A DNA stretch of 64,000 nt. Origin: an alpha proteobacterium BAL199 (GTDB taxonomy: Bacteria > Pseudomonadota > Alphaproteobacteria > Thalassobaculales > Thalassobaculaceae). The stretch is from contig ABHC01000013.1 of assembly GCA_000171835.1 (NCBI GenBank), positions 104,340-168,339 of the forward strand, in the 5' to 3' direction. This document shows, piece after piece, positions 965 to 58,086 of the stretch (position 1 is its first letter; every line of letters begins with the position of its first letter). The position numbers were made by a program, and so were the translations under genes. The notes below the pieces were generated by a model. It was not told where the DNA came from. It saw only the letters and a list, made by a program, of their open reading frames with translations, and did not search any database.

Positions 965-1696
965 ATGAGTTGGATCATTCCCATTTCGCGACCGTCCGCG
1001 GCGCAGCACCGCCTCATCTGCTTTCCCTATGCCGGCGGGGGCGCGTCGATCTTTCAGCCGTGGCGTGATTTCCTGACCGACGGCATCGATCTGTTCGCCC
1101 TCCAGCCACCGGGCCGGGAGCGGCGTTTCGCGGAGCCCCCGATCGCCGACCTCCGCGCGTTGGTATCGGCCTCGCTGGACGCGCTCGCCCCCTTGGCGGA
1201 CCGGCCTCTCATCCTGTTCGGGCACAGCCTTGGGGCGATCGTCGCGTTCGAGACGGCACGGGCCCTTCAGGAACGGGGGAAGCCCGCCGCCCTGCTCATG
1301 GTTTCCGGGCGCCAGGCGCCGGATCTACCGTCGCGGCGCAGGCCGATCGCCCATCTCGCGGACGACGCCTTCATCGAGGAACTCGGCCGGCTGAACGGAA
1401 CCCCGAAGGAGGTGCTTGAAACGCCAGAGCTTATGGCGTTACTGATGCCGATGCTGCGAGCCGATTTCACCATCGCCGACACCTACCGACGACAGCCGGG
1501 CGCGCCGTTGTCGTGCCCGATCCTGGCGCTCGGGTCGGAAGACGACGAGTGGATCGACGAGCCCGGCCTCGATGCTTGGCGCCACGAGACGAACGGCGAT
1601 TTCGACATGCGGATTTTTCCGGGCGATCATTTCTATCTGAACCGCTATCTCGACCAACTGGTTCCGTTCCTGTGCGGAGCGGCGCTGAGGCACTGA
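965..1696 (+). CDS. Type II (editing) thioesterase, GrsT/TycF-like alpha/beta hydrolase
   Basis: 243 aa with N-terminal FPYAGGGASIF, nucleophile elbow GHSLGA and C-terminal GDHF, the hallmarks of the PKS/NRPS-associated TE-II family. First gene of the operon. Confidence 0.85.
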   Translation: MSWIIPISRPSAAQHRLICFPYAGGGASIFQPWRDFLTDGIDLFALQPPGRERRFAEPPIADLRALVSASLDALAPLADRPLILFGHSLGAIVAFETARALQERGKPAALLMVSGRQAPDLPSRRRPIAHLADDAFIEELGRLNGTPKEVLETPELMALLMPMLRADFTIADTYRRQPGAPLSCPILALGSEDDEWIDEPGLDAWRHETNGDFDMRIFPGDHFYLNRYLDQLVPFLCGAALRH

Positions 1697-7200: not shown

Positions 7201-9047
7201 GCCGACTGTGGCCGCGGGATTTCGATCCCTGGACGCCCCGGCAGGCGACGGCCGATGCCCCGGGTCTCGACGGATTGCGATACGATCTGGTCTGGGACCA
7301 ATTGCCCGCGCCCGCCGATCGCGCCGATGGCCGGCCGGCCGCCGTCCTGCTGCTCGCTACCCCGGACAATCCGGTGGCACGCGCGTTGGCGGAACGGCTC
7401 GACGTCCCCATCCGGGACAGCCGCCGCCCGGATGCCGTCGACGCGGCCCTGAAACAGACCACCGACGCGCCGATCGTCCTGGTCCCCGACCCTGCCGGTG
7501 CCGACAGTCACCCGCCGACCGCCCAGCGCACGGCCCTCGATCTGGCCCTGCGGGTGATCGGTCATCTGTCGCGCGGTCCGGCGCCATCGGCCGCGTTTTG
7601 GATCGTCACCACGCAGACACAGGAACCTGGATTGGAGTCGCCCGGCCTGGACTCGCTGTGGGCGCTGATGCGCACCGCAACCACGGAGGATCCGGGGCTC
7701 GACGGACGCTGCCTCGAACTCGCGGCCGTCCCGACCGCTGGGGATCTGGACCTTCTGGCGCGGCTGCTGGCCGCTCCGCCCGAGGGCGAACGGGGCTTGG
7801 CGATCCGGGGGAGTGCCGCTCACGCCGCCCGCCTCGCCACCACACCGGCGCGGCCCGCCGAGCGGTCGCTCCCCGTGCGGTCGGACGCCACGTATCTTGT
7901 GACCGGCGGCTGCGGCAGCCTGGGGCTGGTGTTGAGCCGGGCGCTGGTGGATCTGGGCGCGCGGTCGGTGGTGCTGCTCGGCCGCTCCGGCGCCGATGAG
8001 GCCGCGCGGACCGCGATCGCCGAGATGGAAGCGATGGCGGTGCGGGTGCTGGTCCGCCCCTGCGACATCGCGGATCCGGCGTCCCTGGCGGCGGTGTTCG
8101 ACGAGATCGACCGCAGCCTGCCGCCGCTGGCCGGCGTGATCCACGCGGCGGGCGTGCTGGCGGATGCCGGGGTGGCGGGGCTGGACGGCGAGACCCTGGG
8201 CCGGGTCCTGGCGCCGAAGATCGACGGCGGATGGACCCTGCATCTGGCGACCCGGGCGCGGCGGCTCGACTTTTTCATCGCGCTCTCGTCGGCGGCGCTG
8301 CTGCTCGGCTCGCCGGGACAGGCGGCCTACGGTGCGGCAAACGGGTTCCTGGACGCGCTCGCCGCCTACCGCCAGCGGATCGGCCTGCCGAGCCTCAGCC
8401 TGCGGCTGGGTCTGGTGGAGGGGTCGACGATGCTGCGCCGGGCGCGCGAGGGGGGGCGGGATTTCGCCGCCGACGGCATCCGCCCGATCTCCGCCGCCCG
8501 GGTGGCCGCGGCCCTGCCGGTTCTGTGGTCCGGGGGCCGGCCGGTCGAGACTCTGCTGGACCTAGACGCCGCCGCCTGGCTCGAGCGGTATCCCGGTGCC
8601 GCGATGCGCGCGTATCTGTCGCCGCTGCTGCCCGAGACCGCGCCTGAGGAGGTGCCGGAGGAGACGATCCGGCGCCTGGGCACCGGCCCGGAGGCGCTGC
8701 GCGCGCTGACCGCCGACCTGACGGCGATCGTGGCGCGGGTCACCGGGACGCCGGCGGCGGATCTCGCCGGCGACCGTCCGCTGCGGGAGTTGGGCGTGGA
8801 CTCGCTGATGACCATGCAGATCCGGCGCGCGATCCTGAGCCGGTTCGGGCGCGACGTGCGGGTCACCGCGTTCTGGGCGCATCCCACCCTGGACCGCTTC
8901 GCCAGCCACCTCGCCGGCGAGATCGGCATCGCCATCGCCTCACCGAAGGTTGTGGACGCGAACGGCACGGATCGTGCTAAGGCTGACCCAACGGATCGCG
9001 CAGACGTGCGCCGCGCGCTCGCCGACAAATGGGACAAGTATCTGTGA
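2484..9047 (+). CDS. Loading plus first extension PKS: fatty acyl-AMP ligase (FAAL)-ACP-KS-AT-KR-ACP
   Basis: FAAL motif FVQFSSGSTGAPKGV and YRTGD-like core. ACP GLDSRRAV. KS CRFPGG...DTACSSSL...EAHGTGTPLGDPIE. AT GQGSQWAGMG...GHSCGE...AFHS (malonyl-type). KR TGGCGSLG. ACP LGVDSLM. Start is the ATGA overlap at 2484, preceded by GGGGG 6 nt upstream; track start 2229 rejected. Confidence 0.9.
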   Translation: MSASQPQSLAGLLLDRADRATGSITVIQGAEAEQVRTPADLRADALSVLGSLQVRGLSPGAEVVISVADPHAFVTAFWACILGRMIAIPVQTPTTDEHRLKLTRIRDHLGQSFLITDRPDLAAETDAADIATLCDGTSPAGTVDREAEPNDIAFVQFSSGSTGAPKGVVLRHHQVLTHLSDFAASARMTADDVFLSWFPLTHDMGLIGWHLIPLALGADQYLMPTRLFVQRPSLWLAKASAHRASVLCSNNFGLKHFLKLLKPAVQAEWDLSPVRLLFNAAEPISADLCLDFQDRMAPSGLAPVALTPGYGLAEATLGVSFPSPGEPLKIHSTDRHHLGWGATVRPPPSARDERRLVDLGAAMDGVDMRVVDGAGHILDDRVVGSVEIRSRTMTTGYYRSPTADAGLFAPDGWLRTGDAGFLDGGRLVLTGRIKEIIIQAGQNYDPHDIERVAEEVDGIDLGKVVACGIVGAAEQPELLVMFAHSRVPLQDFPTLARTLREHLLRRGGWLVDHVLPVTSVPKTTSGKIERYRLAQRFLDGDFDAVIDQLADLGDQGTAEDDWRRATGRDRRRLLLARLRAGAEQVIDTVGLALDRSLFDQGLDSRRAVALQRWLDATFDVDLPVSLAFDNPTLLDIANVIDGFDTVGRAPDDTGRTPEPSPAHPGAGPHRDEPIAIIGIGCRFPGGADRPASFWRLLMAETDTTGALPGGRGQPPEPVTGSFLSDVAGFDHQFFSMSVREAEALDPQARLLLEVCWEALEDGGQDIPALAGQEVGVYVGIANTDYAMAQFHSGDGDKIGPYSYTGVAPSLAVGRVSHALGFQGPAMALDTACSSSLLAVHQAVESLRSGDCAMALAGGVNLILGPAGHQSLTHLGALSPTGACRPFDDRADGYVRGEGCGVVVLKPLSAALRDGDDVLALVRSSAVNHDGRSGGLTVPSGPAQTRVIERALDRAGLGPDGIDYVEAHGTGTPLGDPIEIQALDRVFAAQPPGDGKLLVGSVKSNIGHLESAAGIASLIKVSLALRNALIPRSLHHATPNRHVAWDGLSVVIAATPTPWPRRDRPRRAGVSAFGFAGTNVHVVLEEAPDAAAVGPAAAPADGPAEGAAEGSAEGSAEGSIRLPSLMPLSAACAEGVRAQAAAWLALAQSAPDVSGITMAATAARRRSHLPHRAAIRFDTRADLLSGLESVAKGSAATGCAIGRPHPDRVSRLAFVFTGQGSQWAGMGSALMAQEPVFREAMERCAAQIDTLAGGSLLDDLARPAETSPLDRTDRAQAGIFTIQYALTTLLAHYGVTPDCVVGHSCGELAAFQTAGVISLEQACRLVVDRGACMEAAADALGEPGAMVAVQVSRADSADLLGDGLEIAAINSPNSVVLAGPTSAVDAAVDTLSHRSIPHRRLDVAFAFHSRQMDGAAVDFAARAGGMKIGAGGMEIGADTIAVYAAAWGRRMPAGPLDDDYWRANLREPVLFADAVTAMRDDGTTHFLEIGPHPSLSGPMMEILEGVGSSPVIAGTMRRDQGRDQGPGQGPGHGRDAVLDGLAALYVTGFDLRWDRLHPAAPALADAPLYPWRRRRLWPRDFDPWTPRQATADAPGLDGLRYDLVWDQLPAPADRADGRPAAVLLLATPDNPVARALAERLDVPIRDSRRPDAVDAALKQTTDAPIVLVPDPAGADSHPPTAQRTALDLALRVIGHLSRGPAPSAAFWIVTTQTQEPGLESPGLDSLWALMRTATTEDPGLDGRCLELAAVPTAGDLDLLARLLAAPPEGERGLAIRGSAAHAARLATTPARPAERSLPVRSDATYLVTGGCGSLGLVLSRALVDLGARSVVLLGRSGADEAARTAIAEMEAMAVRVLVRPCDIADPASLAAVFDEIDRSLPPLAGVIHAAGVLADAGVAGLDGETLGRVLAPKIDGGWTLHLATRARRLDFFIALSSAALLLGSPGQAAYGAANGFLDALAAYRQRIGLPSLSLRLGLVEGSTMLRRAREGGRDFAADGIRPISAARVAAALPVLWSGGRPVETLLDLDAAAWLERYPGAAMRAYLSPLLPETAPEEVPEETIRRLGTGPEALRALTADLTAIVARVTGTPAADLAGDRPLRELGVDSLMTMQIRRAILSRFGRDVRVTAFWAHPTLDRFASHLAGEIGIAIASPKVVDANGTDRAKADPTDRADVRRALADKWDKYL

Positions 9048-12000
9048 CGCCGCCGCAAGACCAGCAACCGGACATCCACCCGTCCCCGACCGACGAGGTC
9101 GCGGAGCTCGAGGCGGCGTTGGAGCGGTCGCTGCGGGTGATCAACCACCTGGAAGCAGCGCTGGAGCAGCGCGCCGGCGACGCCGGGACAGAGTCGCACC
9201 AACCGGTCGCCATCGTCGGCATGTCTTGCCGCTTCCCCGGCGGCGCCAACGACCCGGCCGCGTTCTGGGACCTGCTCGCCGGCGGACGCGAGGCGCGCGC
9301 CCCCATGGCGGCGGACCGCTGGACCGGCCCCGGCGCCCCGCCGCTGGGCCATTTCCTCGACCGGGTCCCCTACGGCGTCGACGACCGGGTGTTCCGGCTC
9401 TCGCCCGAGGAGATCCGCGGCCTGGACCCGCAACAGCGGCTGCTGCTCGAACTCGCCTTCGAAGCCTTCGAGGACGCCGGCTTGCCGCAAGGCCAGCTCG
9501 AAGGATCGCGCACCGGCGTGTTTCTCGGCCTGGAGAAGGCCGATTTCATCCGCGCCGGACTGTATTCCGGCGATCCCGAGCGGATCACCCCGTATACCGC
9601 CACCGGCATCGCCGGCAGTGCGGCGGCGGGACGGATCTCCTATCTGTTCGACCTGCGCGGACCCTGCCTCTCGCTCGACGCCGCCTGCGCGTCCTCCCTG
9701 GTGGCGGTCGACCAGGCCTGCGCCAGCCTGCGCCGGGGCGACTGCACCATGGCGCTGGCCGGCGCGGTCAGCCTCATGCTGGCGCCGGAGCCGTTCACGG
9801 CCCTGACCCGATTGGGCGCCCTGTCACCGGAAGGCCGCTGCAAGACCTTCTCCGCCGACGCCGACGGCTACGCCCGTGGCGAGGGCGGCGCCATCCTGGT
9901 GCTGAAACCGCTGGCGCAGGCGCAGGCCGACGGCGACCGGATCCACGGCGTGATCCTGGGCAGCGCGGTACGCCACGGCGGGCGCAGCAACGGGCTGACG
10001 GCCCCCAACATGGGCTCCCAGGAAGAGGTGATCCGAGCCGCCCTGGACGACGCCCGCATCGGCCCCGACGCGGTCGACTACCTGGAAGCGCACGGGACCG
10101 GAACGCCGCTGGGCGACCCGATCGAGATGGCGGCCGTGGAAGCGGTGTTCGCCGCGTCCAGACTCGAGGCCGGCAGCCCGCTCGCCATCGGGTCGGTCAA
10201 GACCAATATCGGCCATCTGGAAACGGCGGCGGGCGTCGCCGGGATCATCAAGGTTCTGCTGTGCCTGCGCCACGGGATGCTGCCACCGCATCTGCACTTC
10301 GAGAACCCGAGCGAGCATATCGACTGGCCGTCCCTGCCGGTGACCGTCCCGACCGAGGCCACCGCCTGGCCGTCGTCATCGCCGAGCCGGCGGCGCATCG
10401 CCGGGGTCAGCGCCTTCGGGTTCGCGGGAACCGTCGCCCATGTGGTTCTGGCAGGCGCCCCCGATGGAACCGACATCTGCGAACCGGCGACAGCCGACAC
10501 GACCGCGCTCCCCGACCGGTGCTGGCACCTGGTGACCGTCTCGGCCCGCAGCGAGGCGGCGCTGGCCGCCAATCTCGACGCGCTTGCCGCCCATGTCTCA
10601 CCCGACGACGGCCTGGGCGACGACGGCCTGGGCGACATCGCCCACACCGCCAATACCGGGCGCACGGCGTTCGAGTATCGCGCCGCCGCCGTGGCCAACG
10701 CGGCCAGCGCCCGGCCGGCGACCCTGCCGGCGACCCTGCGCGGACCGGACCTCATGAAAGGCCGATCCGGTCAAGCGGACGCCGGACAGATCGCGTTCGC
10801 GTTCACCGGCCAGGGATCGCAGTACCGGGGCATGGGCCGGGACCTTTACGCGACGTCGCCGGTGTTTCGCGACGCGCTGGATCGCTGCGCCACGCTTCTG
10901 GAACCGGAGCTGGACCGGCCGCTGATCGACCTGCTGTACGGCCCGGCGCCGGACCCGGAGGTGATCGACCGCACCGACTACGCCCAACCGGCCCTGTTCT
11001 CCGTCGGCTACGCCTTGAGTGCGCTCTGGCGATCCTGGGGCATTCACCCGGCCGTGGTGATGGGTCACAGCGTCGGCGAGATCACCGCCGCGCAGATCGC
11101 AGGCGTGTTCTCGCTGGAAGACGCGATCCGGCTGATCGCCGCGCGGGGACGCCTGGTGCAGTCGCTGACGCCGGCCGGCGCCATGGCGGCGGTCTTCGCC
11201 AACGCGGACACGGTCGCGGACCGCCTGAAGGACTTGGACGGCGGCGTTGTGATCGCCGCCCGGAACGCGCCGCGGAACACGGTCATCGCCGGCACGCCCG
11301 ACGCGGTCGCCCATGCCGTCGAGCACCTGCGCCAGGACGGGATCGACGCGCGCGCCCTGTCGGTTTCCCGCGCCTTTCACTCTCCCCTGCTGGACCCGGC
11401 GGTGGCGCCGTTCAGGGACGTGCTGGAGAGCCTGACCTACAACGCGCCGACGATCCCGCTGGTCACAAACCGCACCGGCCGGCTCGCGACCGCCAAGATC
11501 ACAACCGCCGAGATCACAACCGCCGACATCATGACCCCGGACGCCTGGTGCCGGCATCTTCTGGACCCGGTCCTGTTCGAGGACGGCGTCCGAGCCGTCG
11601 CCGAGGCCGGCATCCGGACGGTGATCGAAATCGGCCCGGCGCCGGTGTTGAGCGGTCTGGCCCGGCAGGTCGACGGATCGGACACGGCTCCGATCTGGAT
11701 GCCGTCCCTGATCGCCGCCAGCGAGGGCTGGCAACAGATGCTGTCGACCCTGGGCCAGTTGTACGTCCGGGGTGTCGATGTCGACTGGCCGGGCGTCGAC
11801 CGGGGACGGGTGCGCCGCAGGGTCGACCTGCCCACATACCGTTTCCAAAGAAACCATGCGGAGCCGCCGGCACCCCTCCCCGTTGCCCGCTCGGTCGGCG
11901 CCCTTGCTCGCACAACGCCAGAGGGCCCGGTTTCAGAGGGTCCGGTTTCAGAAGGTCCGGCATTCGACAGCGTTTCGCGCGGGTTCCAAGCCGTCACCAC

Positions 12001-15000
12001 TCTCGGCCGGGGGCTGCTGTGCCACGCCATGGAGCGGCTGGGCCTGTTCGATCGGCTGGAGGCCGCCGTCGCCCCGACCGTTGACGACCTGCGGTCCGAT
12101 CTGGGGATCGATCCCTCCTATGCCCGGCTGTTCGACGAGCTGCTGGCGATCCTGGCGCGGCACGGGGTTCTGGCGCTGGCCGAGGGTCGGGTCGTCGCGA
12201 CCGACATCCGACGCCACACATCCCCTGCCGACTCCATCCCTCCTGCCGACTCCGCGACCGTGGTGCGCGACCATCCGGATCTGGCGGCCATGGTCCGGCT
12301 GCTTGAGGTCTGCCTGGACGCCTATCCGGACGTGCTGCGGGACACCCGCAAGGCGATGGAGGTCCTGTTCCCCGGCGGGTCCATGGCGCTGGTCGAAGCG
12401 GTCTACCAGAGCGGCGACATCGCCGGTTATTTCAATCGCCTGGTCGCGGATGCGGTGCGCCAGGCCGTGACCGAGATCGGCGGCACCGGCGGGGCCGGCA
12501 TCCTGGAGATCGGCGCTGGAACCGGCGGCACCAGCCGGACGGTGCTGGCGGCCTTGGCCGAGAGGGAGACCGCCGCCCTCGCCTACCACTACACCGACAT
12601 TTCCGCCGGGTTCGTGCGTCAGGCGGAAATTCATCTGGGCGCGCGCTACCCGTTCACCCGGTTCCAGACACTCGACATCGAGCGGGATATCGCCGCTCAA
12701 GGCTGCCGGGAGGGCGGCTACGACGTGGTGCTGGCCAGCAACGTGCTGCACGCCACCCACGACATGGCCCACACCCTGGCACAGGCCGCCCGGCTGGTGC
12801 GCCCCGGCGGGCGGTTGATCATCAACGAGGTGACCCGGTCCCACGAATTCATCGGCATGACCTTCGGGCTAACGCCGGGCTGGTGGCTGTATCAGGACGC
12901 CGAGGTCCGTCAGGCCGGATCGCCGGTGCTGAGTCTGGCCAGTTGGCGCCGGATGCTGGCCGAGGCCGGTTTCGCGACGGTCGACACCCACGGATTGGAC
13001 GGCGACGACCCGGACGACCCGGTTCAGGCGGTGATCGTCGCCTATCGGGATGGCGGATCGGCGTTTGCCGCGCCGCAGGATCTGGACATCGGCGGGCACG
13101 GGGGCGCCGGCCATCGCGGCGCGCTCGAAGGGCGGCTGGTCGCCCTGGTCCAGCGGATCTCCGGCATCACCGTCAGCGATGGAGATACCGCGACCAACCT
13201 GTTCGCCCTGGGGCTCGACTCCCTGCTTCTGATGCAGATCAAGCAGGGCATGCAGGAGGAGTTCGGGGTCGAGGTCTCCATGGGACAGTTCTACAACGAG
13301 CTGTCCACCATCGGCGACCTGGTCGACCTGCTGGCGCGCCAGGTTTCGCCGGCGCCGACGGCAGCTCCGGGACCCGCTACCGGGTCGGTAGCCCAGACCG
13401 TTCCCCACGTCCCGCAGCCGGCGCCGGCGACGGCGGGCTCTCGGGACGCCATTCTGCGCGTGGTGGAGCAACAACTCGAGCTCATGCGCCAACAGCTCGC
13501 GTTGCTCGGTGGCGACCCGGGCGCGGTGGCTCTTCCCGCAATGCCGGCAACGGTGCCGACCGCGCCAGCGCCCCCCCTCGCAGCTCCCCACCCTGCCACA
13601 TTTGCATCTGCGCCGGCGGCATCTGCGCCGGGTGCATCTGCACCGGCGGCATCGGTCCAGGGGCCGATCGATGGCGCGTTGAGCCCGGCGCAGCAGCGCC
13701 TGATCGACGATCTGGTCCGGCGCTACACCGCCAAGACGGCGCGCTCCAAGGACGCGATGGCGCGTGCGCGCCCGGTGCTGGCGGACTGGATCGCGACCGT
13801 CGGGTTCCGCCCGGAGCTGAAGGAGATGATCTACCCGATCGTCTCGGTCGCATCCCAGGGCAGTCACGTCACCGATCTTGACGGCAACGACTATGTCGAC
13901 CTGGCCATGGGCTTCGGGGTCGAGTTCTTCGGCCACCGCCCGCCCTTCGTGGTCGACGCCGTGCGCGAGCGGCTGGACCGAGGGTTCGAGCTGGCGACCC
14001 AGTCGGATCTGGCCGAGGAGACGGCCCGGATGGTCGCCGAGTTGACCGGCGTCGAGCGGGTGACGTTCAGCAATACCGGAACCGAAGCGGTGATGACCGC
14101 GTTCCGGCTGGCGCGCACGGTGACCGGGCGCAAGCGCATCGTCCATTTCAAGGGCGCGTTCCACGGCTTCTATGACGGGGTCATGGCCTATGGCGGGCGC
14201 ACCGGCTCCACGCCCATGGTGCCGGGCATCCTGCAGAACCAAATCGACGACGTGCTGGTCCTGGAATACGGCTCCGACGAGGCGCTGCGGGTGATCGAAG
14301 CCGAGGCGGACAGCCTGGCCGGCGTGCTGGTCGAGCCGGTGCAGAGCCGCAATCCCGACCTGCAACCGCGCGACTTCCTGCACGCCCTGCGGCGGATCAC
14401 CGAGAGCCACGGCGTGGCCCTGATCTTCGACGAGCTGATCACCGGTTTCCGCGTCCATCCCGGCGGCGCCCAGGCGCATTTCGGGGTCACCGCCGACATC
14501 GTCACCTACGGCAAGATGATCGGCGGCGGCATGCCGATCAGCGTGATCGCCGGCAAGGCGCGGTTCCTCGACGCGATCGACGGCGGCGACTGGCGGTACG
14601 GCGACGGCTCGCGGCCGGCGGCGACCATGACGTTCTTCGGCGGAACCTTCTGCCGCCACCCGCTGTCGATGGCCGCCGCCCACGCCACCCTGCGGTTCAT
14701 GGCCGACCATGGCCCCGCATTGCAGGAGCGGGTCAACGCCCGCACCGAAGCGCTTGCCGGGCGCCTGAATGCCCTGTTCGGCGACCGCCGCATTCCGTTC
14801 CGGGTGGCCTGGTTCGCCTCGCAGTTCCAGATCCGCCAGGCGATGGCCGGCGGCGGGGGCGAGACGATCCAGTCGCTGGAGCTGGCGGTCTTCTTCTTCC
14901 TGCTGATGGAGCGGGGCATCTACACCTGGGAGCGTCGGGTCTGCTTCCTGTCGATCGCCCATGACGACGGCGATCTCGACCGCATCGTGTCGGCGGTGGC

Positions 15001-18000
15001 GGATAGCCTGGACGCGATGCTGGCCGCCGGGTTCTTCGGCGGCCGGTCGGCGCCCCCGGTCGCGCTGACCCCCGGCCAGAAGGACATGGCGTTCCGGGCG
15101 GCCCAGGGGACCGCCGCGTCGACCGCCTATGCCGAACCATTGGTGCTCGACCTGGAGGGGCCGCTGGACATCGCCGCCCTGCAGGGCGCGTTGGACGCGG
15201 TGATCGCCCGCCACGACGCGTTGCGGGTGGTGCGCATCGCCGACGACGCCGCCGAGATCGCGCCGAAGATATCGGTGGCGATCCGGCGCACCCTCGACAC
15301 CAGCCGGGACGCCGGCGACTGGCTGTCCGCCCTGTGCCGCCAGCCGTTCGATCTCGACGCCGGCCCCTTGATCCGCGCCCACCTGCTGGAGCTGGCGCCG
15401 GAGCGTTTCCGGTTCGCGCTGGTGCTGCATCACCTGATCGCCGACGGCTGGTCGGCCGGCGTCGTGCTGCAGGAGCTGGCCCGGATCTACAGCGCGCTGG
15501 CCGCCCGCGCGCCGCTCCCCGAGCTGCCGGCGCCGGTGTCCTTCGCGGCATACCAGGCCTGGTATGCCGATCGGCTGACCCGCCGCCGCGCGACGGTGCG
15601 CGGCTACTGGCGCCGACAGCTACGCGACGTGCCGCCGCTGGATCTGCCGGCCGACGTCCTCGCGCCCTCGCGCACCTCCGGGCGGGGACAGCGCCTGCGC
15701 CGGGAAATCGCGGGCGACACCACCACGGCGATCCGGGCGGCGGCGCGGGCCCACCACACCTCGTCCTTCGCGATCCTGCTCGGGACCTGGACGGCGCTGC
15801 TGTTCCGGCTGTCCGGCTCCCGGCGGATCACCGTCGGCGTCGCGAGCGCCGGGCAGTCCGCCATGGGCAAGGACACGCTGGTCGGCCAATGCTCCTCGCT
15901 GCTGCCGCTGATCGTGGAGGTGGATCCGGCGCTGTCCTGGACGGCGCTGCTGGAGCGGCTCACCGCAGCGCTCGGCGAACTGTGGGACCATCAGGACGTG
16001 CGCCCGGAAGACGTGATCGGGGACGATCCAGACCTGGCCCTGCCGCCCCTGCGGGCGTCGTTCAATCAGGACCGCGATCCGGGCGGATGCCGCTTCCACG
16101 GCCTGTCCGCCGCTTTGGCGCCCGCCGAAATCGGCTTCGTCAAGCACGCGCTGGCCCTGAACGCGATCGAGTCCGACGGTCGGATGCTGCTCGATTTCGA
16201 CTACGACACCGATCTGTTCGATCCCGCCACGGTGAGCGACTGGGCCGACGGGTATCGCGCCCTGCTCGACGCCCTGCTCCTCGCACCCGACGCGCCGATC
16301 ATCGCCGACGGCCCCGCCCCAGCGAGCGGGCCCGCAGGCCGCGCCCGGACCGCCGACTCCCCCCCGCTCGGCATCGGCGCCGACGCTTTCGACCGTCACG
16401 TCGAGGCCTGGATCGGGGCGGCGGAAATCGCCGCCGGCGACCGTCTGCACATCTCCGACGCGGCCGCGTCGGCACTTGGCGCCGACGGGGCGGCGGCGTT
16501 GCGTACGGCCGGGGCCACGGTCCTGCCGGCGGGCGCGCAGCGTCAGCCCGGAGACGGCGACATCCTGCTGGCCCGCGAGGCGTCCGGGATGCCGACAAGC
16601 GCCAAGATGCTGCTGGTCGATGACGGCACCTTGCTGGACATCACCCTCGCCGACCTGTTGCGGACCCGACCGGAGACCAGACTTTTCGTCGTCGCCCAGC
16701 CCACCGGACTGCCGGTATCGCTCGGCGTGGAGCGGGTGGACGCGGCGCGCGAGGAGTGGCGCCGTCACGGGCTGAGGGCGCCGTCGCCCTCTCTGAATGT
16801 CGATGTCCGGGACACCGACGGCCGGCCGGTGCTCAGCGGCGTCGCCGGAAACCTCCACCTCGGCCCGACATCGACCGGCGAGGCGGCGCGACGCCGGTCC
16901 GACGGGACGATCGAGCTGCTTGGTCCGGCCGATGCGATCGTTCACCACCGAAGCCACCCGGTGCGCGCCTCCACCGTGGCCGCAATCCTGCTCGCCCACC
17001 CCTCGGTGCGCGATGTCGCCCTCGACCCCGCCGCCGCGAGCTTCTCGGTGCAGGCCGCCATCGGCGACAGCGGTGTCGACGCGCAAACCCTGCGGCGATA
17101 CCTGCTGCGCCATCTGCCGGTGTGGAGTGTGCCCGGACGTGTCGTCGTGGTGCCGCAGTTTCCGGCCCCACCGGAAACCCCGGCCGAGACCACCCCGGAA
17201 GTCCGGGCCGACGGCCCGCAAACCGCTGAAATCATAACCCTGTTCCGCCATGTGCTGGGCGGCGTCGATGTCGCGGCAGACGATGACTTTTTCGATCTTG
17301 GCGGCGATTCCCTGGCGGCGACCCGCCTGGTCAACCAGGTCCGCACGGTGTTCGGCGTGGATCTGGCCATGCGCTCGGTGTTCGAAGCGCCGACACCCGC
17401 CCTGCTCGCCGCCCGGCTTGGGGACGCGGAACGGTCGACCCTGGCGCCGATCACCGCCGGCCGCCGTCCCGATCGACTTCCGCTGTCCCCGGCGCAACGC
17501 CGATTGTGGTTCCTGGAGCAGTTCGAGAGCACGGCCACCGCCTATGTCATGACGGTCGCCGTGCGTCTGAACGGTCCCCTGGACGTGTCCGCGCTGGAGC
17601 GGGCCCTGAACGCCGTCTTGGCGCGTCACGAAAGCCTGCGCACCCGCTTTCCGACGACCGACGACGAACCATGGCAGGAGATCCTTCCCGCCGCCGCTGC
17701 CCGTCTGACGTTGGCGCCGGTCGACACCACCGACGCGGCCCTGTTGCCAACTCTGGCGGCGCTCCAGGCGACGGACGCACGGTTCGATCTGGCCAACGAT
17801 CTGCCGGTTCGCGCGATACTCTACCGCCTGTCGGCCGATCGCCATGTCCTGGTCCTGCGGGTCCACCATATCGCCGGCGACGAGGAATCCTTGCGCCCCC
17901 TGGCCCAAGACCTTCGCCGCGCCTATTCGGATGCCTCCGCCCTGACGCCCTTGAGCCTCCAGGTCGCCGATGTTGCCCTATGGCAGCGGGATCAGACCTA

Positions 18001-21000
18001 CGACGACCAGGAGGCGTTCTGGGTCCGCGAGCTGGGCGACCTGCCGAGCGCCCTCGCATTGCCCTACGACACGCCCCCTGGAGGTGCCGGGCGCCATCGT
18101 CCCGCCGGACAGGTGCCGTTGCGGATCGGCGCCGCGTTGACCCGGCGATTGTCCGACCTCGCCCATGAGGAAAGGGCCAGCCTGTTCATGGCGCTTCAGG
18201 CCGGCCTCGCCACCCTGCTGCACCGCTACGGCGCCGGCGACGACATTCCGATCGGCGCCCCGTCCGCCGGGCGGAGCCGGCGCGAGCTGGAAGACCTGAT
18301 CGGCTTCTTCGTCAACATGATCGTTCTGCGCTGCCGCCTGGGCGGCCGGCCCAGTTTCCGCGACCTGCTGGCGCGCGTCCGCGGGTGCAATCTGGCCGCC
18401 TATGCGAACCAGGACGCGCCGTTCGACCGGGTGGTGGACCGCCTGCGCCCGCTGCGCGACGGTGAGGCGTTGGCCTTGCAGGTCGTGCTGGTGTTGGGAC
18501 AGGGCGATGCGGGTGCGCTCGACCTGCCGGGAATCGACAGCGCGCTTCTGCGCATCCCCGAGCGGGACGCCAAGTTCGACCTGAGCGTCATGCTGGCGCC
18601 CACGGAGGATGGCGGGCTCGCGGGTGAGTTGGTGTATGACGCCCACCTGTTCCGCCCGGAGACCGCCGCCCGGCTGGCCGACCACCTGGTGCGCATTCTC
18701 CAGGCCGCCGTGATCGCGCCGGACGAACCGGTCGCCCGTCTGGCGTTTCTGGCGCCGGCCGAGCGCCAGCCGCTTGTCGCCGAGCGAACCGAAACCATCC
18801 GGATCGATCCCGACGCCACGGTGACCGGTCTGCTGGAGGCCCAGGCGGCGGCGACCCCGGAAGCGGTCGCCCTGGTCGCCGCCGATGGCCGGGCGATGAC
18901 CTATTCCGCCCTTCACCGGACCGCCGCGACGGTCGCCGGCATCCTGAGGCGCCGGGGCATCGGGCGGGGTGACGTGATCGCGGTCCTGTGCCGGCGGTCG
19001 CCGGACATGGTGGTCGGCATTCTAGCCGCCCTGAAGGCCGGCGCCACCTATCTGCCGCTCGACCCGAGCTATCCGCCGGCCCGCCTCGCCTTCATCGTCG
19101 AGGATGCGGCCCCGGCCCTGGTGCTGAGTCAGTCGGAGCTGACAGAGATCCTCCCCTCCGACACCGAAGTATTGCTCCTCGACACAGTGCCGGAAGCCTG
19201 CGGATCAAACGCCACCGACGCGGCAAGCCCGCCCGCAACGCCGGACGATGCCGCCTACATAATCTACACCTCCGGCTCGACCGGGCAGCCGAAGGGGGCG
19301 ATCCTGCCGCACCGGGCGGTGGTGAATTATCTCGTCTGGGCGCGCGATACGTATCGCCCCGAGCTTGGCCGGGGTGCGCCGATCAACACCTCTATCGGCT
19401 TCGACGCCACCATCACCAGCCTGTTCCTGCCGCTGATCGCCGGCACCGCCGTGTATCTGATCGACGAGGAGGACGAGATCGGGGCGCTTGCCGCGTGCCT
19501 GAGCGACCACCGCGACTTCAGCCTGGTCAAGCTGACCCCCGCCCATCTCGATATCCTGCGGATGACGATGGCGCCGGAAGACCTCGCCGGCATGGCGCGG
19601 GTTCTGGTGATCGGCGGCGAAGCGCTGTCGGCCGCCACGGTGCAGGCATGGCGCGACCATGCGCCGGAGACCCGACTGTTCAACGAGTACGGCCCGACGG
19701 AAACCACGGTCGGCTGCATCGTCCACGAGGTCGGACCGGACACGCCGACCAGCGGGATGGTGCCGATCGGCCGGCCGATCGCGAACACGCGGATCTATCT
19801 GCTCGACGCCGAGATGCAGCCGGTTCCGGTGGGTGTTGCCGGCGAGGTGTACATCGCCGGTGCCGGCGTGGCGGATGGATATCTGAGGCGTCCGGAGCTC
19901 ACGGCGGAACGGTTCCTCGCCGACCCGTTCGGCGAACCGGGCGCGCGGATGTACCGCTCCGGCGATCTGGCGCGGCGCGACGCGGACGGCCGGATGGAGT
20001 ATCTCGGGCGCGCCGACGGGCAGATCAAGCTGCGCGGCCACCGGATCGAACCGGGCGAGATCGAGGCCGCCCTGCTGGCCCAACCATCGGTCGCCCAGGC
20101 TGCCGTCATTCTGCGCAAGGACGCCGTGGGAGATGCCGAACTGGCCGCGTATCTCGTGCCGGCGGCGGGCGTGGAACCGCGCGCGACAGCCGCGCTTCAA
20201 CAGGCGCTGAGCGAGCGGTTGCCGGCGGTGGCGGTGCCGTCATCCTACATCTGGGTCGACGCGGTGCCGCTCTCTCCGAACGGCAAGGTCGACCGGGCGC
20301 GGCTTGCCCGCGTGGCGGTCGCGCCCCGGCAGGCCGCCGCACCTGACGACCTGCCTTGCGCCCTCACGGAGCGGATCTGCGCGGCGTTCGCCGCCGCGCT
20401 GGAGGTGCCGCATGTCGCCCCCGACGCCAATTTCTTCGCCATCGGCGGGCATTCGCTTCTGGCCGCCCGGTTGATCATCCGCCTGCGGCGAGAGGTCGAT
20501 GACGGGCTGTCGCTCGGGGACCTGTTCGCGAACCCGACCGCCGCCGACTTGGCCGGGCTGCTGGCGGGTCGGGAACAGGCGACCCCGCGCCCCGGCCTCG
20601 TCCCGACCCCCGCCGACGCCGACGCCGACGCCGACTATCCGGTCTCGCCGGGTCAGCGGCGGCTTTGGGCGCTGGACCGGATGGAGCCGGGTCGTGCGGT
20701 CTACAACATGGCCTGCGCGTTCCTGGTCGACGGCGATATCGGCCCGGCCCGGCTGCGGGGCGCACTCGACGCCCTGATGCGGCGGCACGAGACGTTGCGC
20801 ACCGGCTTCGTGGCCGTCGGCGCGGAGCCGCGTCAGCGGGTGCACGCCGACTGCGCCGTGCCGTTGGTCGTCGAGGATCTGTCGCACTGGCCCGACCCGC
20901 TGGCGCGGGCCAAGGCGGTTGCCGACGCCGATGCGCGGACCCCATTCGACCTGGCGACGGCCCCGTTGTGGCGGGTCCGGCTGCTCGCCCTCGGCGGCAC

Positions 21001-24000
21001 CGGGGACGCGGCCCGGTCGGTGCTGGTGCTCAACATGCATCACAGCATCGGTGACGGCGCGTCGGTCCCGATCCTGATGCGGGAACTGTCGGCGTTCTAT
21101 GCCTCCGCAGGCGCCACCACCACCGGCGACGGAATCTCGCCGCTCGCGATCCAGTACCGCGACTATGTCGCCTGGTTCGAGACGTGGCTGAAAACGCCGA
21201 CGGCCGAGGAGGATCGGGCCTATTGGGTGGCTCGGCTGTCGGGGATGGGCGATTCGCTGGACCTGCCGACGGATCGGCCGCGCGGACTCGGCACCAGCGG
21301 ACGCGGCGGGCAGATCGCCCGGGAGTTCGGGTCGGCCGGCCGCGGGCTGTTGGCGCTCGCCGTCGAAGCGCGCACGACGCCGCTGGCGGTCCTGATCGCC
21401 TTGGTACGGGCGGTGCTGCATCGCTACACCGGCGCGACCGACATCACCCTCGGCACGGTGGTATCGGGGCGCGACGAGCCCGGGCTCGAGGACCAGATCG
21501 GCTTCTTCGTGAACACGCTGGCGCTGCGCGATCCGATCGACGGCGCGGACCGGTTCGCCGACGTGGTCGCCCGATCCGCCGGCACCCTCGGCGAGGCGCT
21601 GGCCCACGCCACCTATCCGTTCGAGCGGATCGTCGACGCGCTCGCCATCGGCCGGGAGCCGGGACGCACTCCGCTGTTCGACGTCCTGGTGACGATGGAG
21701 GAGGAGCTGCCCCGGCCGGTGTTCGGATCGGCGTCGGTCAGCCGGCTCGGCGACCTGGCCGTCAGCCGCCATTTCGACCTGACGTTCTTCTTCCGCGCGA
21801 CGGATGACGGGCTGGCGCTGGTCGTCGAGTACGACGGCGACCTGTTCGATGCCTGGCGCATCGCCCAACTCTGCGACCATCTGGAAACCTTCGCCGGCAA
21901 CGCGGTGGCCGCGCCGGAGCGCCCGATCCTCGATCTCGATATCCTGCGGCCCCAAGAACGCGATCGGCTGATCCGCGGGTTCAACCAGACCGCCACCGAC
22001 TATCCCCGCGACGCCAGCATCACCGAGCTGTTCCGCGCGCAGGCGGCCCTGTCGCCCGACGCCCCGGCCGTGCGCGAGGCCGGCGGCAACGCGCTCACCT
22101 ACGGGATGCTGGAGCGGCGCTCGAACCGGGTGGCCCACCGGCTGGTCGACGAGGCGGGCGTGGCGCCGGGCGATCTGGTCGGCCTGATGGCGACGCGGTC
22201 CTGCGACCTGATCGTCGCCCAGCTCGCGATCCTCAAGGCGGGGGCGGCCTTCGTGCCGATCGACCCGGACTACCCCCGGGGCCGGATCGACGCGATGCTC
22301 ACAGCGGTGGAGATCCGCTGTCTGATCGTCCAGGACGATGCCCCGATCGCGGTCCCCGATCGCTGCCGGCGGGTCCCGCTCTCCGCCCTCGATGGCGAGG
22401 CGGCCGAGGGACCGGACCGGCACCCGTCGGCCGAGGATCTGGCCTATGTGATGTTCACCTCCGGGTCGACCGGCCAGCCGAAGCCGGTGGCGGTGCCGCA
22501 TCGGGCGGTGGTCCGGCTGGTGCGCGACACCAACTTCGTGGCGCTGGGCGGCGACGACCGACTGTTGCTGACCGGCGCGCTGTCGTTCGACGCCACCACG
22601 TTCGAGATCTGGGGCATGCTGTTGAACGGGGGGACCCTGGTCCTCGCCGACTCCCGCCTGATCCTGGACGCCCGCGACCTCGGCCGGCTGTTGGCGGAGG
22701 AGCGGATCACCACCCTGTGGCTCACCAGCAGCCTGTTCAACCACATGGTCGACCAGGGGGCGGACCTGTTCGCGCCGCTGCGCACCCTGCTGATCGGCGG
22801 CGAGCGGCTGTCGCCGCCCCACGTGGCGGCGGTGCGCCGCCGGCTGCCGGCCTTGCGCCTGCTGAACGGCTACGGGCCGACCGAGAACACCACCTTCTCC
22901 CTGGTGCACCCGATCGACGCGGTCGAGGACGGGCGGGACATCCCGATCGGCCGCCCCATCGCCAACAGCCGGGCCTATATCCTCGGCCCCGGCGACCGTC
23001 TGGCACCGGTCGGCGTGGTCGGCGAGATCGTGGTCGGCGGCGACGGCCTTGCCCGGGGCTATCTCGGCCAGGACGCGCTGACGGCCGAGCGCTTTGTCGA
23101 TCATCCGGAGCTGGACGGCGAACGGGTCTATCGGACCGGCGATTTCGGGTGCTGGCTGCCCGACGGCAGCATCGCCTATCTCGGCCGGCGCGACCGCCAG
23201 ATCAAGATCCGCGGCGTGCGGATCGAAATCGGCGAGGTGGAAGCGGCGTTGCGCGCGCAAGCAGGGGTCGAGCGCGCCGCCGTCACCACGCGGGAGCGGG
23301 CCGGCGTCCCCGAACTCGTCGCCTATGTGACCGGCGATCTGGCGATGGACACCGACGCGGTCCGCCGGGATCTGCACACCCTCCTGCCGAAAGCGATGGT
23401 GCCCGCGCATGTCCTGAAGATCGACAGCCTGCCGCTCGACGGAAACGGCAAGCTGGACTACGCCGCTCTTCCCACCCCCACACCGGCCACCCCCACACCG
23501 GCCACCCCCACACCGGCCACCCCCACACCGGCCACCCCCACACCGGCCACCCCCACACCGGCCACCCCCACACCGGCCACCCCCACACCGGCCACCCCCA
23601 CACCGGCCACCCCCACCCCAACCACCGCATCCGAGTCAACCGCATCCCCCGACCGGGCCGCCAGCCGAGCCGCCAGCCGAACACCTGGCAATCCGCTTGA
23701 GACCGCGCTGATCGCCCTGTGGCGCGAGGTGCTGGAGCGCGACGCCGTCACGGTGGACGACAACTTCTTCGACCTGGGCGGCCATAGCCTGTCGGCGATC
23801 CGGTTGGCGCAGCGGATCCAGGAGACCCTCGGCATGTCCGTCGCCGTGCGCGACCTGTTCGCGATGCCGACCATCGCCGGGCTGGCCGCGCACCTGCTCA
23901 CCACGATGATGCGAGAGCGTCTGGGAACTCCCGCCGACCAACCACCAACCCACCCGGACCAGATCCACCCGCTGCCGCCCGCCGAAGACTACCCGGCGAC

Positions 24001-27000
24001 CGCGAACCAGCGCCGGCTGTGGTTCCTGCACCGCCTGGACGCGGGCCTGACCGCCTACAACATCGTCGGCGCATGGCGGCTTGACGGCGCGGTCGACACC
24101 GACGCCCTGCACGGCGCCCTTTCCCGGCTGGTCGCCCGTCACGAGGCGCTGCGCACGGTGTTCTCCGGGATCGACGGAGAGCCGCGCCAGCGGGTCCTGG
24201 ACACGGCCCCTCCACCGCTCTCGCTCGAAACCGTTGCAAGCGATGCCGAGGTCGAGGCGGCCCGCGACGCCGAGCTTGGCCATGTGTTCGATTTCGGCGC
24301 GCCGCTGCTGCGGGTCCGGCTGCTGCGGTGGACCGAAACGGCGTCGGTGCTGCTGGTGAACTGCCACCACCTGATCGCCGATGGCTGGTCGATGCGGGTC
24401 CTGCTGGATGAGTTGGCCGACGCTTACCGGACCCTGCGCCGGGGCGAGCTTCTTCGGGAAGGCCCGGCCCCGATCCAGTACAAGGACGCCGCCGCCTGGG
24501 CCGCCGCGCGCCAACGGGGCGGCGAGGGTCAAGCCGATCTGGACTACTGGCGGGAAACCCTGTCCGGCGATCTGGCAGCGCTGGAACTGCCGACCGATTT
24601 CCCCCGTCCGGCGCTCAAGAGCTATCGCGGCGCGGCGGTGCGGATCGGGGTCGACGCGGCGACTACAGCCGATATCCGAGCTCTATCGGAATCAAAAAAT
24701 ACAAGTTTATTCTGCATTCTATCGTCTTTAGTTAATGTTTTACTTTACCGATATACCGGACAGTGCGACATTCGCGTGGGCACACCGGTGGCGGGGCGTG
24801 GGCATCCGGGCCTGGATCGGGCCGTCGGGTTCTTCGCCGACACCGTCGTGTTGCGCAATCACCTCGACGCCGACGACGCCTTCAACACCCTGCTCGACCG
24901 GATGACGACCACGCTCGCAGACGCGCTGGCGCATCAGTCGACACCGTTCGAGCACGTGGTCGCCGCCGTCGGCGCCGACCGGGATCCGGCGCGATCGCCG
25001 TTCTTCGACGTCATGGTCACCCTGGCGGAGGCGGAGCGGCCGCTTGTCCTGGATGGACTGCGGGCCGTCGCAATGCCCCTGCCCGAGATCACGACACAGT
25101 TCGATCTGACCTTCCGGTTCCAGGACCTTGGCGAGACCCTGGCGCTGGAACTGTCCTACAATACCGACCTGTTCAGCGACGCCCGCATCACCCGGATGGC
25201 CAACCATCTGAAGACGCTGATACGCGCGGCGGCGACCGACGGGACCCAATCCATCGCCCATCTGCCCTTGATGGCGGCGGCGGAGGCCGAGCAGGTCACC
25301 CGGGACTTCGCGTTCGACCGGGCCGCGGTCGATTGCTCCCCCAGCCTGGCGGCCTTGTTCGAGGCCCAGGCCGACCGCACCCCGTCGCGGCCGGCGGTGG
25401 TCGGCGACGACGGTAGTGTCGACTACCGGGCGCTGGACCATGCGGCCAACGGCTGGGCGGCGGCTCTGCTGGACCACGGTCTGCGGCCCGAAGAGCCGGT
25501 CGGGCTGGCGTTGCCCAGCGGATCGGTTGCGCTGATCGCGGCGATGCTCGGCATCCTGAAAGCGGGCGGCGCCTATGTGCCGCTCGACCCGAGACACCCC
25601 GCCGACCGGCTGCGCGCCATGATCGCCGATGCCGGCTGCCGGCTGGTGCTCACGGCCGAGACCCGGGATGCGTCGGGGCTTGCAGACTCCACCTTGATCC
25701 GCGCGCCCATCACCCCACGGGCCGACCGCCCGGCCCGGATCGACGGGGGCGACCGGCTCGCCTATATCCTGTTCACCTCCGGATCGACCGGCCGTCCGAA
25801 AGGCGTGATGGTCGAGCAACGGGCGGTGGTGAACCTGATCCACGGCCTGAACCGGGCGATCTACGACCCCCTGGCAACCACCGGACCGTTGCAGGTCGCC
25901 CAATTCGCCTCCGTGGTGTTCGACGCGTCGGTTCAGCAGATCTTTCCGGCCCTGCTGGCCGGCCACACCCTGCACCCGGTCGACGGAGCCCTGCGCCGTG
26001 ACGCGCCCGCCCTGCTGCGCTGGTTCCGCGCGCGCGGCATCAACGTCGCCGACGGCACGCCCACGCTCCTCGACATGCTGCTGGAGGCCGGTCTCGATCG
26101 CACACCGCTTCCGGATCTGCGCCACCTGATCCTGGGCGGTGAGCCGCTGTCGTCGGCAGCGCTCCGACGGCTGCGCGAGAACCCGTCGCTGGCGGGTCTC
26201 GCCGTCACCAACGCCTATGGACCGACCGAGACCACCGTCGATGCCACCTTGTTCGAGCTGCGCGGCGACGCTCCGCTCCCGGCGGTGATCCCGATCGGCA
26301 CCCCGCTGCCCAATGTCGAGGCGCTGATCCTGGACGCCAACGGCGAGCCGGTCCCGATCGGCGTGGCCGGGGAGCTGCATATCGGCGGCGCCGGTCTGGC
26401 GCGCGGATACGTGGCCGCCTCCCCAGCGGACAACGCCCGCTTCATCCCCCATCCCCACCGCGACGGCGAACGGCTGTACCGCACCGGAGATACGGCGCGG
26501 TGGTTGGAGGACGGCGCCATCGAGTTCCTTGGCCGGCGCGACGGGCAGATCAAGATACGCGGCCACCGGATCGAGGTCGGCGACGTGGAAGCCGCCCTGA
26601 AGCGTGCGCCGGGTATCCGTCACTGCGCGGTGGGTGTTCAACCCGGAGGACCTCGCCCCGCGCTGACCGCGTGGATCGTCGCGGACCGGGAGATCCCGAC
26701 GGCCGATCTGCGGCGCCATCTGGCCGGCCACCTGCCGGACGCGATGATCCCGGCGCGTTTCCAGGTCCTGCCGGCCCTCCCCCTGACCCCCAGCGGCAAG
26801 ATCGACCGAAAAGCCCTGGCCGCCATGCCCCTGGCCGCCATGCCCGTGACCACCATGCCCCCGGCCCGGCAGGACGGCGCGCCCGAGGTGCCGGAGAGCG
26901 CGCTTGAGGCCGGCATCGCGAAAATCTGGGAGGAGGTGCTGGGCCGGAGCGGGATCGGCCGCACCCTGAATTTCTTCGAGATCGGCGGCGACAGTGTGGG

Positions 27001-33211: not shown

Positions 33212-33950
33212 ATGAGCAGACTGACGACCTCCCCCGCGCGCGCCGACCTTGCCCGCTATACCGGACACGGGTTCGATGCCCACCGCGCGTTCTGGCAGGA
33301 CCGGACCGCCGCCTGCGTGGACCCGGTGGATCTCGGGGCTGATGGAACCTCCCCGGCAACCCACGCGCATCCGTTCTCCGCGGAGGCCGCCGGGACCCTA
33401 GCGCGGATTTCCGGCGGCCAGGAGCTCGGCCGGCTCGTGGTGGTCACGGCGGCAGTCGCGCGGGTGTTGGCCGCGTGGGGCGGGGGACAGTCGATCCTGG
33501 TCGACACACCACCGCTCCCGACCTCCGCCCATGCCGGCGAACCGGTGGCGATGGTGCTGCCGCTGATGCTCACCGGCACCGTGCGTGATCTGCTGACCGC
33601 GACCCGCGCGGTGATCGCCGATGCCTATGGTCATCAGGACTTCCCGATCCGCCGCTTGTCCGACCCCGCCTTGCCCGAAGCCCGGATGATGATCGCCAGC
33701 CCGGCTCTCCACGACGTGCCGGCGGACAACGAAGCGCGGGACCTGACGCTCACGCTGGACCTGACCCTCACGCTGGAGCAGACCGGCCTGCGGCTGCGCC
33801 ACCGGCTGGCCCCCTGGCGCGCCGCCGCCTTCGCCGCCCAGATCGACCGGGCCGTGGCCGGTTTCGCGGAGACCGACCGCCCGCTCGCCGACATCGACCT
33901 GCTGTCGGCCGGGGAACAGGCCACGGCCCTGGCGTTCGGACGGGGCCCGG
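33212..33950 (+). other. N-truncated condensation-domain half (C*), directly following the complete terminal C domain of the preceding protein
   Basis: Alignment by eye to C-domain C-terminal subdomain motifs; the N-terminal lobe carrying the catalytic histidine motif is missing. Confidence 0.5.
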
Positions 33951-55408: not shown

Positions 55409-55560
55409 TGTGCGGATTCCGACGATGCCGGCCACCTATTCCGATTTGAAGGCGGCCACCTATTCCGATCCGATGCCGGCCGGCGTTCCGATTTGATGCC
55501 GGCCACCTGAGGCACGCTCCTCCGGGTCGTGGGGGATGATGTTCGGGCGGTGTCGGACGG

Positions 55561-56316: not shown

Positions 56317-56330
56317 GTTCGGGATCTCCG

Positions 56331-58068: not shown

Positions 58069-58086
58069 GGCCTGGAGTTGAGCCAG

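Follow-up and report, generated by a model that had tools for sequence, protein, structure and literature searches.

The window analysed here is a 64,000-nucleotide stretch of contig ABHC01000013.1 (assembly GCA_000171835.1, positions 104,340 to 168,339) from the alphaproteobacterium BAL199, an isolate from the Baltic Sea that appears in the literature as Thalassobaculum sp. BAL199. With a GC content of about 70%, the window is filled by a hybrid polyketide synthase-nonribosomal peptide synthetase (PKS-NRPS) lipopeptide cluster, whose proteins match those of locus tags BAL199_07648 to 07693 exactly. One of its genes, g2 (9029..33199, + strand), encodes a hybrid PKS-NRPS of 8056 residues; its domain order, established from the open reading frame (ORF) list, Pfam and a phmmer map with g2's own domains, is KS-AT-cMT-ACP-AMT-C1-dA-PCP1-C2-A2-PCP2-C3-A3-PCP3-C4-A4-PCP4-C5-PCP5-C6-A6-PCP6-C7. 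The subject of this report is the element marked dA (16343..17227, + strand), which lies between the condensation domain C1 and the peptidyl carrier protein PCP1 of the first NRPS module and is a truncated, catalytically dead adenylation (A) domain, a 'dA' pseudo-domain.

Module 1 is preceded by AMT (13838..14776, + strand; PF00202, E 1.7e-54), a class-III aminotransferase domain predicted to make a β-amino acyl chain. C1 (15056..16342, + strand; PF00668, E 4e-60) carries the motif HHLIADG at 15428-15448, and PCP1 (17228..17428, + strand; PF00550, E 4.5e-16) carries GGDSL, with the phosphopantetheine serine codon at 17309-17311. Module 2 follows with the condensation domain C2 (17474..18778, + strand; HHIAGDE at 17864-17884), an intact A domain, A2 (18833..20308, + strand, from Pfam), and PCP2 (20372..20572, + strand, from the phmmer domain map). 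An earlier note on this stretch had described PCP1 and both flanking C domains as intact, which agrees with these motifs; C2 retains its catalytic His and Asp, with Glu in place of the final Gly. A second module without an A domain is found further along g2 (27185..28669, + strand), where C5 (residues 6053-6482) abuts PCP5 (residues 6481-6547) with no spacer. In total the assembly line has ten PCPs and eight intact A domains.

An adenylation-domain remnant in module 1

The Pfam Condensation match of C1 ends near nucleotide 16300 and the PP-binding match of PCP1 starts at 17228, leaving 309 residues between them, close to the 300 or so given in the earlier note; by domain boundaries, dA comprises residues 2439-2733 of g2 (295 residues). 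Searches for PF00501 (AMP-binding) and PF13193 (AMP-binding_C) returned no match in nucleotides 16229-17329 or 16028-17629, even at E ≤ 10, and no complete A domain emerged by alignment. The region is clearly homologous to an adenylation domain, as judged by three comparisons. BLASTP against A2 of the same gene gave a 210-column alignment at 27% identity (E 3e-10), in which a gap of 30 residues falls at motif A6. In a phmmer search of the PDB it matched the A domains of LgrA, BmdB, Txo2 and GrsA in their C-terminal parts, with E values as low as 1e-9. Finally, hhalign of a profile of the remnant family against an intact-A profile, built from the seven A domains in the window that are intact and uninterrupted, gave a probability of 99.1% and an E value of 1.5e-18 over 273 aligned columns. 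Residues 1-278 of the remnant correspond to columns 173-487 of the 550 in the A-domain profile, a stretch that begins directly behind motif A3 and stops right before motif A10. The resemblance to A6-A9 claimed previously is therefore real in kind, but the remnant is longer than was thought and spans roughly A4 to A9.

The N-terminal 170 or so residues are gone, and with them motifs A1, A2 and A3, the last being the P-loop (S/T)GxTGxPKG. An A4-like remnant, FDRHVEAW (16388..16411, + strand), has an Asp that is not conserved (FARH and LAAH in orthologues). At the position of A5, canonically NxYGPTE, the sequence FVVAQPTGLPV (16685..16717, + strand) has AQPTG in place of YGPTE and has lost the Thr-Glu pair. 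The A6 remnant GVAGNLHLG is followed by a deletion of about 30 residues, which has removed the C-terminal half of A6, and by the A7 remnant STGEAAR (together 16838..16891, + strand), where the Asp of canonical YRTGD has become Glu (TGE) in BAL199 and Ala, Ser or Val in the orthologues. The A8/hinge region, GPADAIVHHRSHPVRASTVA (16922..16981, + strand), is degenerate, and the A9 remnant, LPVWSVP, precedes the site of the deleted A10 (canonically NGKxDR, now PQFPAPPE; 17114..17176, + strand). The losses of A3, A5 and the A10 lysine that had been reported before were thus all recovered. Because the catalytic P-loop, the Thr-Glu of A5, the Asp of A7 and the Lys of A10 are all missing, dA cannot adenylate.

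The structure of the remnant was predicted with AlphaFold from two alignments. With intact A domains included in the alignment, the mean predicted local distance difference test (pLDDT) score was 68, with values above 90 for PCP1, around 80-85 for remnant residues 150-270 and below 50 for the first 75 residues. With the four remnant-family sequences only, the mean pLDDT was 56 and residues 30-90 scored 60-82. The two models show an identical succession of helices and strands, and the best Foldseek matches of both are NRPS A-PCP structures (LgrA, EntF and DhbF; E 1e-18 and 2e-9). Both would fit a folded α/β remnant, at a moderate to low confidence that leaves no detail readable.

Orthologues and selective constraint

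A HMMER scan of 1.84 billion representative proteins yielded three that cover more than the C-terminal subdomain of the remnant. The first, P0009, comes from a metagenome-assembled genome (MAG) of Rhodopila sp. and matches the remnant at E 2e-49. The second, P0124, is a fragment of 3777 residues from MAG GCA_028288745.1 with the order C1'-remnant-PCP1-C2-A2-PCP-C3-A3-PCP-C4-A4. The third, P0125, is encoded on the ENA contig L007, which also has upstream KS-AT-KR-ACP and KS-AT-cMT-ACP-AMT-C genes. All three are assigned to assembly lines orthologous to that of BAL199. A word-indexed protein search with the remnant alone gave one weak match and missed P0009, which was recovered by a longer AMT-C1-remnant-PCP1 query and by the full HMMER scan. 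Against the genome collection, the remnant alone found, among the matches listed, only an unrelated Longimicrobium A domain, and neither two metagenome scans (one with a profile, one with a degenerate pattern matching the window and locus L005) nor a search of the plasmid collection returned a relative.

In all three orthologues A2-A3, A10 and the C-terminal half of A6 are gone and A5 and A7 are degenerate; the domain was therefore dead by the time of their common ancestor. Since then, erosion has gone on differently in each lineage: an A1 fragment, MTYGEL, is kept in the three relatives and lost in BAL199, and 8-12 residues of A8 that BAL199 keeps are lost in the three relatives. Between the window and P0009, identity is 44% in the remnant and 56% in C1. 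Patches of the remnant such as WRR, QPxG, LLAHPxV and LRRxLLRxLP are strictly conserved. The linker from A9 to PCP1 is unalignable and rich in insertions and deletions, with an insertion of 50 residues in one orthologue, and shows how a free linker looks in these same proteins.

Selection was measured as dN/dS from codon alignments, with bootstrap 95% confidence intervals (CI). For the pair L005/L007, dN/dS was 0.29 in the remnant (CI 0.21-0.39; 338 codons; dS 0.63) and 0.225 in C1 (CI 0.17-0.29; dS 0.70). In two more distant pairs, with dS approaching saturation, the remnant gave 0.37-0.41 as against 0.34-0.50 for C1, PCP1, C2 and A2. The remnant is under purifying selection almost as strong as that on the catalytic C1. 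This constraint at the protein level therefore marks a maintained pseudo-domain and not neutral decay. The earlier description of a decayed relic holds as far as catalysis is concerned, but a remnant that is kept in at least three orthologous synthetases at a dN/dS of 0.29 is a maintained element. As this case shows, a dead A domain can persist for long under selection, in the manner of fungal dA domains, and the constraint suggests that the C-terminal half of A domains matters structurally in its own right. Such a role would bear on NRPS engineering, in which A domains are cut and swapped.

The domains on either side are conserved as well. The HHxxxDG motif of C1 is kept in the window, in P0009 and in L007, the motif region being missing from the P0124 fragment, and the PCP1 serine is kept in all four sequences (window, P0009, P0124 and P0125). 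The C2 motif reads HHIAGDG in P0124 and HHIAGDA in P0125, and the final position of HHxxxDG in C2 appears to be free in this lineage. In L007, at least two frameshifts lie within C1 and the remnant (near nucleotides 8650 and 9950), with fragmented gene calls further downstream; they are most likely long-read assembly errors, the alternative being real pseudogenisation.

Loading of PCP1

Because the catalytic residues of C1 and PCP1 are kept and both domains are under purifying selection in the orthologues, we infer that module 1 is in use, as the earlier note had supposed; PCP1 would therefore depend on another enzyme for its charging. Within the 64-kb window, no gene for a stand-alone A or A-PCP protein or for an MbtH-like protein was found, which shifts weight from delivery in trans to the use of the neighbouring A2, the second option named in the earlier note.

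Ten specificity positions were extracted from the intact A domains by anchoring on motifs A4, A5 and A10. The code of A4 (DAQDIGAVDK) we take to be Gln-like, that shared by A6 and A8 (DILQLGVIWK) Gly-like and that shared by A7 and A10 (DASTIAAVCK) Tyr-like; A9 has the code DVHCGGLVEK. The code of A2, DATKVGEVGK, is listed for Asn (PMC3547906), and that of A3, DAFWLGGTFK, for Val (PMC9113097). DATKVGEVGK is also the commonest code among the A domains that directly follow AMT-C in homologues (11 of 67, plus close variants), and the nearest non-orthologous relatives of A2, at 50% identity, are such first-position A domains. Furthermore, the remnant profile and the A1-motif fragment of the orthologues score preferentially against Asn-type A domains, a noisy enrichment that offers a lead only to an Asn-type ancestry of the remnant.

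The reading that we favour, at somewhat better than even probability, is that dA is a maintained dead domain, that module 1 is used and that PCP1 is charged by the A domain of another module, most probably A2. The remnant would most likely survive as a folded structural element between C1 and PCP1, consisting of what remains of the core subdomain together with the small C-terminal subdomain, whose normal task is to carry and swing the PCP. The adjacent downstream A2 would load both PCP1 and PCP2. Modules 1 and 2 may both have been Asn users, so that A2 could serve both, and the A domain of module 1 would have lost its activity while its C-terminal part was kept. PCP5, also without an A domain of its own, would likewise draw on a neighbouring A domain. 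For the product we predict a cyclic lipopeptide, 2-methyl-3-amino-5-hydroxy fatty acid-(Asn?)-Asn-Val-Gln-(?)-Gly-N-Me-Tyr-Gly-X-Tyr. Tools that assume colinearity would drop module 1 or leave it blank; with ten carriers and eight active A domains, two residues would have to come from shared A domains.

Several observations weigh against this reading. Only the Asn and Val assignments are backed by cited papers, those of Gln, Gly and Tyr being tentative readings after the general code tables. The rankings behind the Asn-type ancestry are noisy, with other types at rank 2 in one and at ranks 1 and 2 in the other. PCP2 is among the weakest PCP matches to a PCP1 query (16 bits). In module 5 the C domain is fused directly to its PCP, so that, provided module 5 works, geometry does not in general demand a spacer and gives no reason for module 1 to keep its remnant. 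The better of the AlphaFold models is biased towards the A fold by the intact A domains in its alignment, and the mean pLDDT of both (68 and 56) is moderate to low. Lastly, the loading of PCP1 and its supplier are predictions from the sequence of the 64-kb window.

Two further ideas were considered and set aside. A similarity between PCP1 and PCP2 that might mark a shared A partner was not found. The type II thioesterase (TEII) of the cluster is unsupported as an aminoacyl shuttle of the SyrC/CmaE type: shuttles of that type use Cys, and TEII has the ordinary GHSLG serine.

Comparable arrangements are known from other synthetases. In the fungal SidD, module 2 contains a dA that lacks about 290 N-terminal residues, and A1 was found by intact-protein mass spectrometry (MS) to load T1 and T2; in SidC, A3 loads T4 and T5 (both PMC10192304). 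As in SidD and NPS6, the BAL199 remnant is an inactive A domain between the C and carrier domains of an otherwise intact module, with the N-terminal part lost and the C-terminal part kept. In contrast to the fungal systems, where the supplier A1 lies upstream, BAL199 has no upstream amino-acid A domain, and the supplier would have to be downstream or external. The extent of the loss differs too (about 290 N-terminal residues in SidD; about 170 in BAL199, plus the internal deletions at A6 and A10), and the loading by a neighbour was shown by MS in SidD, whereas in BAL199 it is predicted from sequence.

In Schizosaccharomyces pombe Sib1, module 2 has a degenerate A domain, and a different A domain of the pathway is the predicted source of its amino acid (PMC2644324); in FbsE of the Acinetobacter fimsbactin pathway, a truncated A domain is predicted to be complemented in trans by the A domain of FbsF (PMC11661926). 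Both resemble BAL199 in having a truncated or degenerate A domain inside the module and a predicted supply from another A domain. They differ in belonging to siderophore pathways of another architecture, and supply in trans is only predicted there too. We place the BAL199 dA, as a putative bacterial member, among the truncated A domains (dA) already known from nonlinear NRPSs: it lies between an intact C domain and an intact carrier, has lost the N-terminal motifs and is kept across orthologues (dN/dS 0.29-0.41).

A further parallel is the thalassospiramide synthetase Ttm of Tistrella mobilis, where no A domain is present in modules 1 and 5 and T1 is loaded by A2/A3, which lie downstream (bioRxiv 10.1101/560987). 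As described there, Ttm is likewise a marine alphaproteobacterial NRPS-PKS lipopeptide line whose first NRPS module and module 5 are without a functional A domain, with no stand-alone A gene near the cluster (for BAL199, within the 64-kb window). It differs in that its modules are described as A-less, with no conserved remnant mentioned in the text covered, and in product class and starter, a starter C domain acylating the first residue with no AMT involved.

The beginning of the BAL199 line resembles lines of the iturin/mycosubtilin type, which have an FAAL, one or more PKS modules, an AMT and then a C domain that passes the β-amino acyl chain to the first amino acid, and an Asn-type code is the commonest at that first position among homologues. 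The order in the iturin type is FAAL-ACP-KS-AMT-C-A(Asn)-PCP, whereas BAL199 has FAAL-ACP-KS-AT-KR-ACP, then KS-AT-cMT-ACP-AMT-C1 and then the dead A domain. BAL199 thus differs in an extra PKS module that includes a C-methyltransferase, in its ten modules, two of them A-less, and in having the first-position A domain dead and an Asn-type A domain in module 2.

Four other explanations were weighed against loading by another module of the line. An external supplier, in which a free-standing A or A-PCP enzyme from elsewhere in the genome charges PCP1 and perhaps PCP5, possibly with a shuttling transferase, would resemble SyrB1/SyrC acting with module 9 of SyrE, and the remnant might then be the docking surface of the partner. 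The module looks functional although it has no working A domain, docking would account for the conservation of the remnant, and two A-less modules in one line could share such an enzyme. Nevertheless we regard this as unlikely: no such gene lies in the 64 kb, where the flanks hold TEII, a phosphopantetheinyl transferase (PPTase), an ABC exporter, an SPFH protein and transposases, and those cases with experimental evidence that we found in the literature rely on A domains from within the line.

That module 1 is skipped, PCP1 staying empty while the β-amino acyl chain passes from the ACP directly to C2 and C1, the remnant and PCP1 serve only to keep the frame, is improbable. Its A domain is certainly dead, and skipping is documented for related assembly lines (thalassospiramide). 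However, purifying selection acts on C1 (dN/dS 0.23), on the remnant (0.29) and on PCP1, and HHxxxDG and the PCP serine are kept in the orthologues that cover them; upkeep of the frame alone would not conserve amino acids. Moreover, C1 is orthologous to the AMT-adjacent C domain, which is the chain acceptor in 76 homologues.

Slightly more improbable still is a new, non-adenylating function of the remnant, such as ligand binding or the recruitment of a tailoring enzyme to the residue bound to PCP1, the latter much as the degenerate, C-like X domain does in glycopeptide NRPSs. In its favour are a purifying selection close to that on a catalytic domain and the strictly conserved patches; yet no tailoring enzyme is encoded beside the synthetase, and the best-conserved patches, LLAHPxV and LRRxLLRxLP, align with positions conserved in intact A domains too, which fits maintenance of the fold better. 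A sequencing or assembly error, by frameshift or a collapsed repeat, is effectively refuted in spite of the draft source and the frameshifts in the orthologous contig L007, since the frame is open through all 8056 residues of g2, tblastn with intact A domains found no A-domain similarity in any other frame, and identical deletions occur in three independent sequences from other organisms.

The position of the remnant next to AMT-C may be of more general relevance. An AMT-C-PCP arrangement without an A domain was found in 11 of the 87 homologues whose next domain is known (P0012, P0023, P0037, P0039, P0046, P0050, P0051, P0065, P0066, P0075 and P0085; loci L008, L009 and L010), with 20-53 residues between C and PCP, and these 11 fall into at least four separate clades of the C1 tree. 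Among the 633 C domains of 147 other large NRPS proteins, taken as a control, 5 lead into a PCP with no A domain in between. The excess (Fisher p ~1e-7, ignoring relatedness and with a control set chosen via A-domain matches) is a lead. That the loss of A domains right after AMT-C is recurrent and not accidental strikes us as rather doubtful. If it were so, a general mechanism specific to this junction would be possible, for example a downstream A domain obligatorily charging the upstream PCP, or else the load of PCP1 would not be an amino acid that its own module has activated; the remnant would then be a brace selected for that mechanism, and A-less first modules after AMT-C would make a small new rule for β-amino lipopeptide lines. 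The A domains beside the A-less homologues at L008 and L009 are of a starter type that does not use amino acids and are uninformative. At L010 the order is AMT-C-PCP-TE, with no A domain in the available part of the contig.

Among the five control cases, two are themselves truncated A domains with the C-terminal part preserved. In P0135 (residues 1015-1185), only an A6 fragment and the small subdomain lie between C and PCP. P0230 (residues 2975-3235) has an A1 fragment and everything after A5, with A2-A5 deleted internally and Gln at the position of the A10 Lys. Remnants of this kind have therefore arisen more than once in bacteria.

Other features of the cluster and its flanks

Upstream of g2 lies the TEII gene (965..1696, + strand; PF00975, E 6e-50), which precedes the PPTase gene (within ORF 1513-2487, + strand) and the megasynthase genes. 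The first of these, g1 (2229-9047, + strand), encodes FAAL-ACP-KS-AT-KR-ACP. Downstream of g2, g3 (33212-38137, + strand) encodes A7 with an embedded methyltransferase, followed by a PCP and an E-like domain, and g4 (38148-49655, + strand) encodes C-A8-PCP-C-A9-PCP-C-A10-PCP, an E-like domain and a TE. No product or description of this cluster was found in the searched literature on BAL199 and Thalassobaculum.

The first 260 or so residues of g3, before A7, have no Pfam match; residues 20-181 (33269-33754) match a C-terminal condensation lobe (TycC 2jgp, E 2e-4). A putative half-C remnant thus opens g3, after the complete C7 that ends g2. The E-like domain of g4 (47595-48977) is a full-length member of the condensation family, with the motif HHLAVDAVSW, located after the last PCP and before the TE; g3 ends in a domain of this type as well (HHLVVDWVSW, 35% identity).

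The linkers of the synthetase contain short tandem repeats. A perfect 15-nucleotide repeat of 9.7 copies (100% identity) at 23472-23616 encodes (PTPAT)n in the linker between A3 and PCP3, and further repeats of 12 and 15 nucleotides lie in other linkers, with one inside the SPFH gene (53226-53332).

The NRPS genes are followed on the + strand by the ABC exporter gene (50460-52100) and the SPFH/Band7 gene. An uncharacterised NRPS/PKS cluster of Thalassobaculum sp. OXR-137 is likewise trailed by an exporter and prohibitin pair. Contigs encoding the exact BAL199 exporter protein are present in 48 blocks of the metagenome collection (JGI, ENA and Logan), so BAL199 or a near-identical strain is widespread in public metagenomes.

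The downstream flank (53551-63323) is a mosaic of mobile elements. On the - strand it holds an ORF that matches only the C-terminal 45 or so residues of the MoCoBD_2 profile (53551-55155), an IS21 istA/istB pair (55561-57866), a two-partner secretion transporter of the ShlB/FhaC type (59518-61761) and a transposase of the Mutator family (62046-63323).

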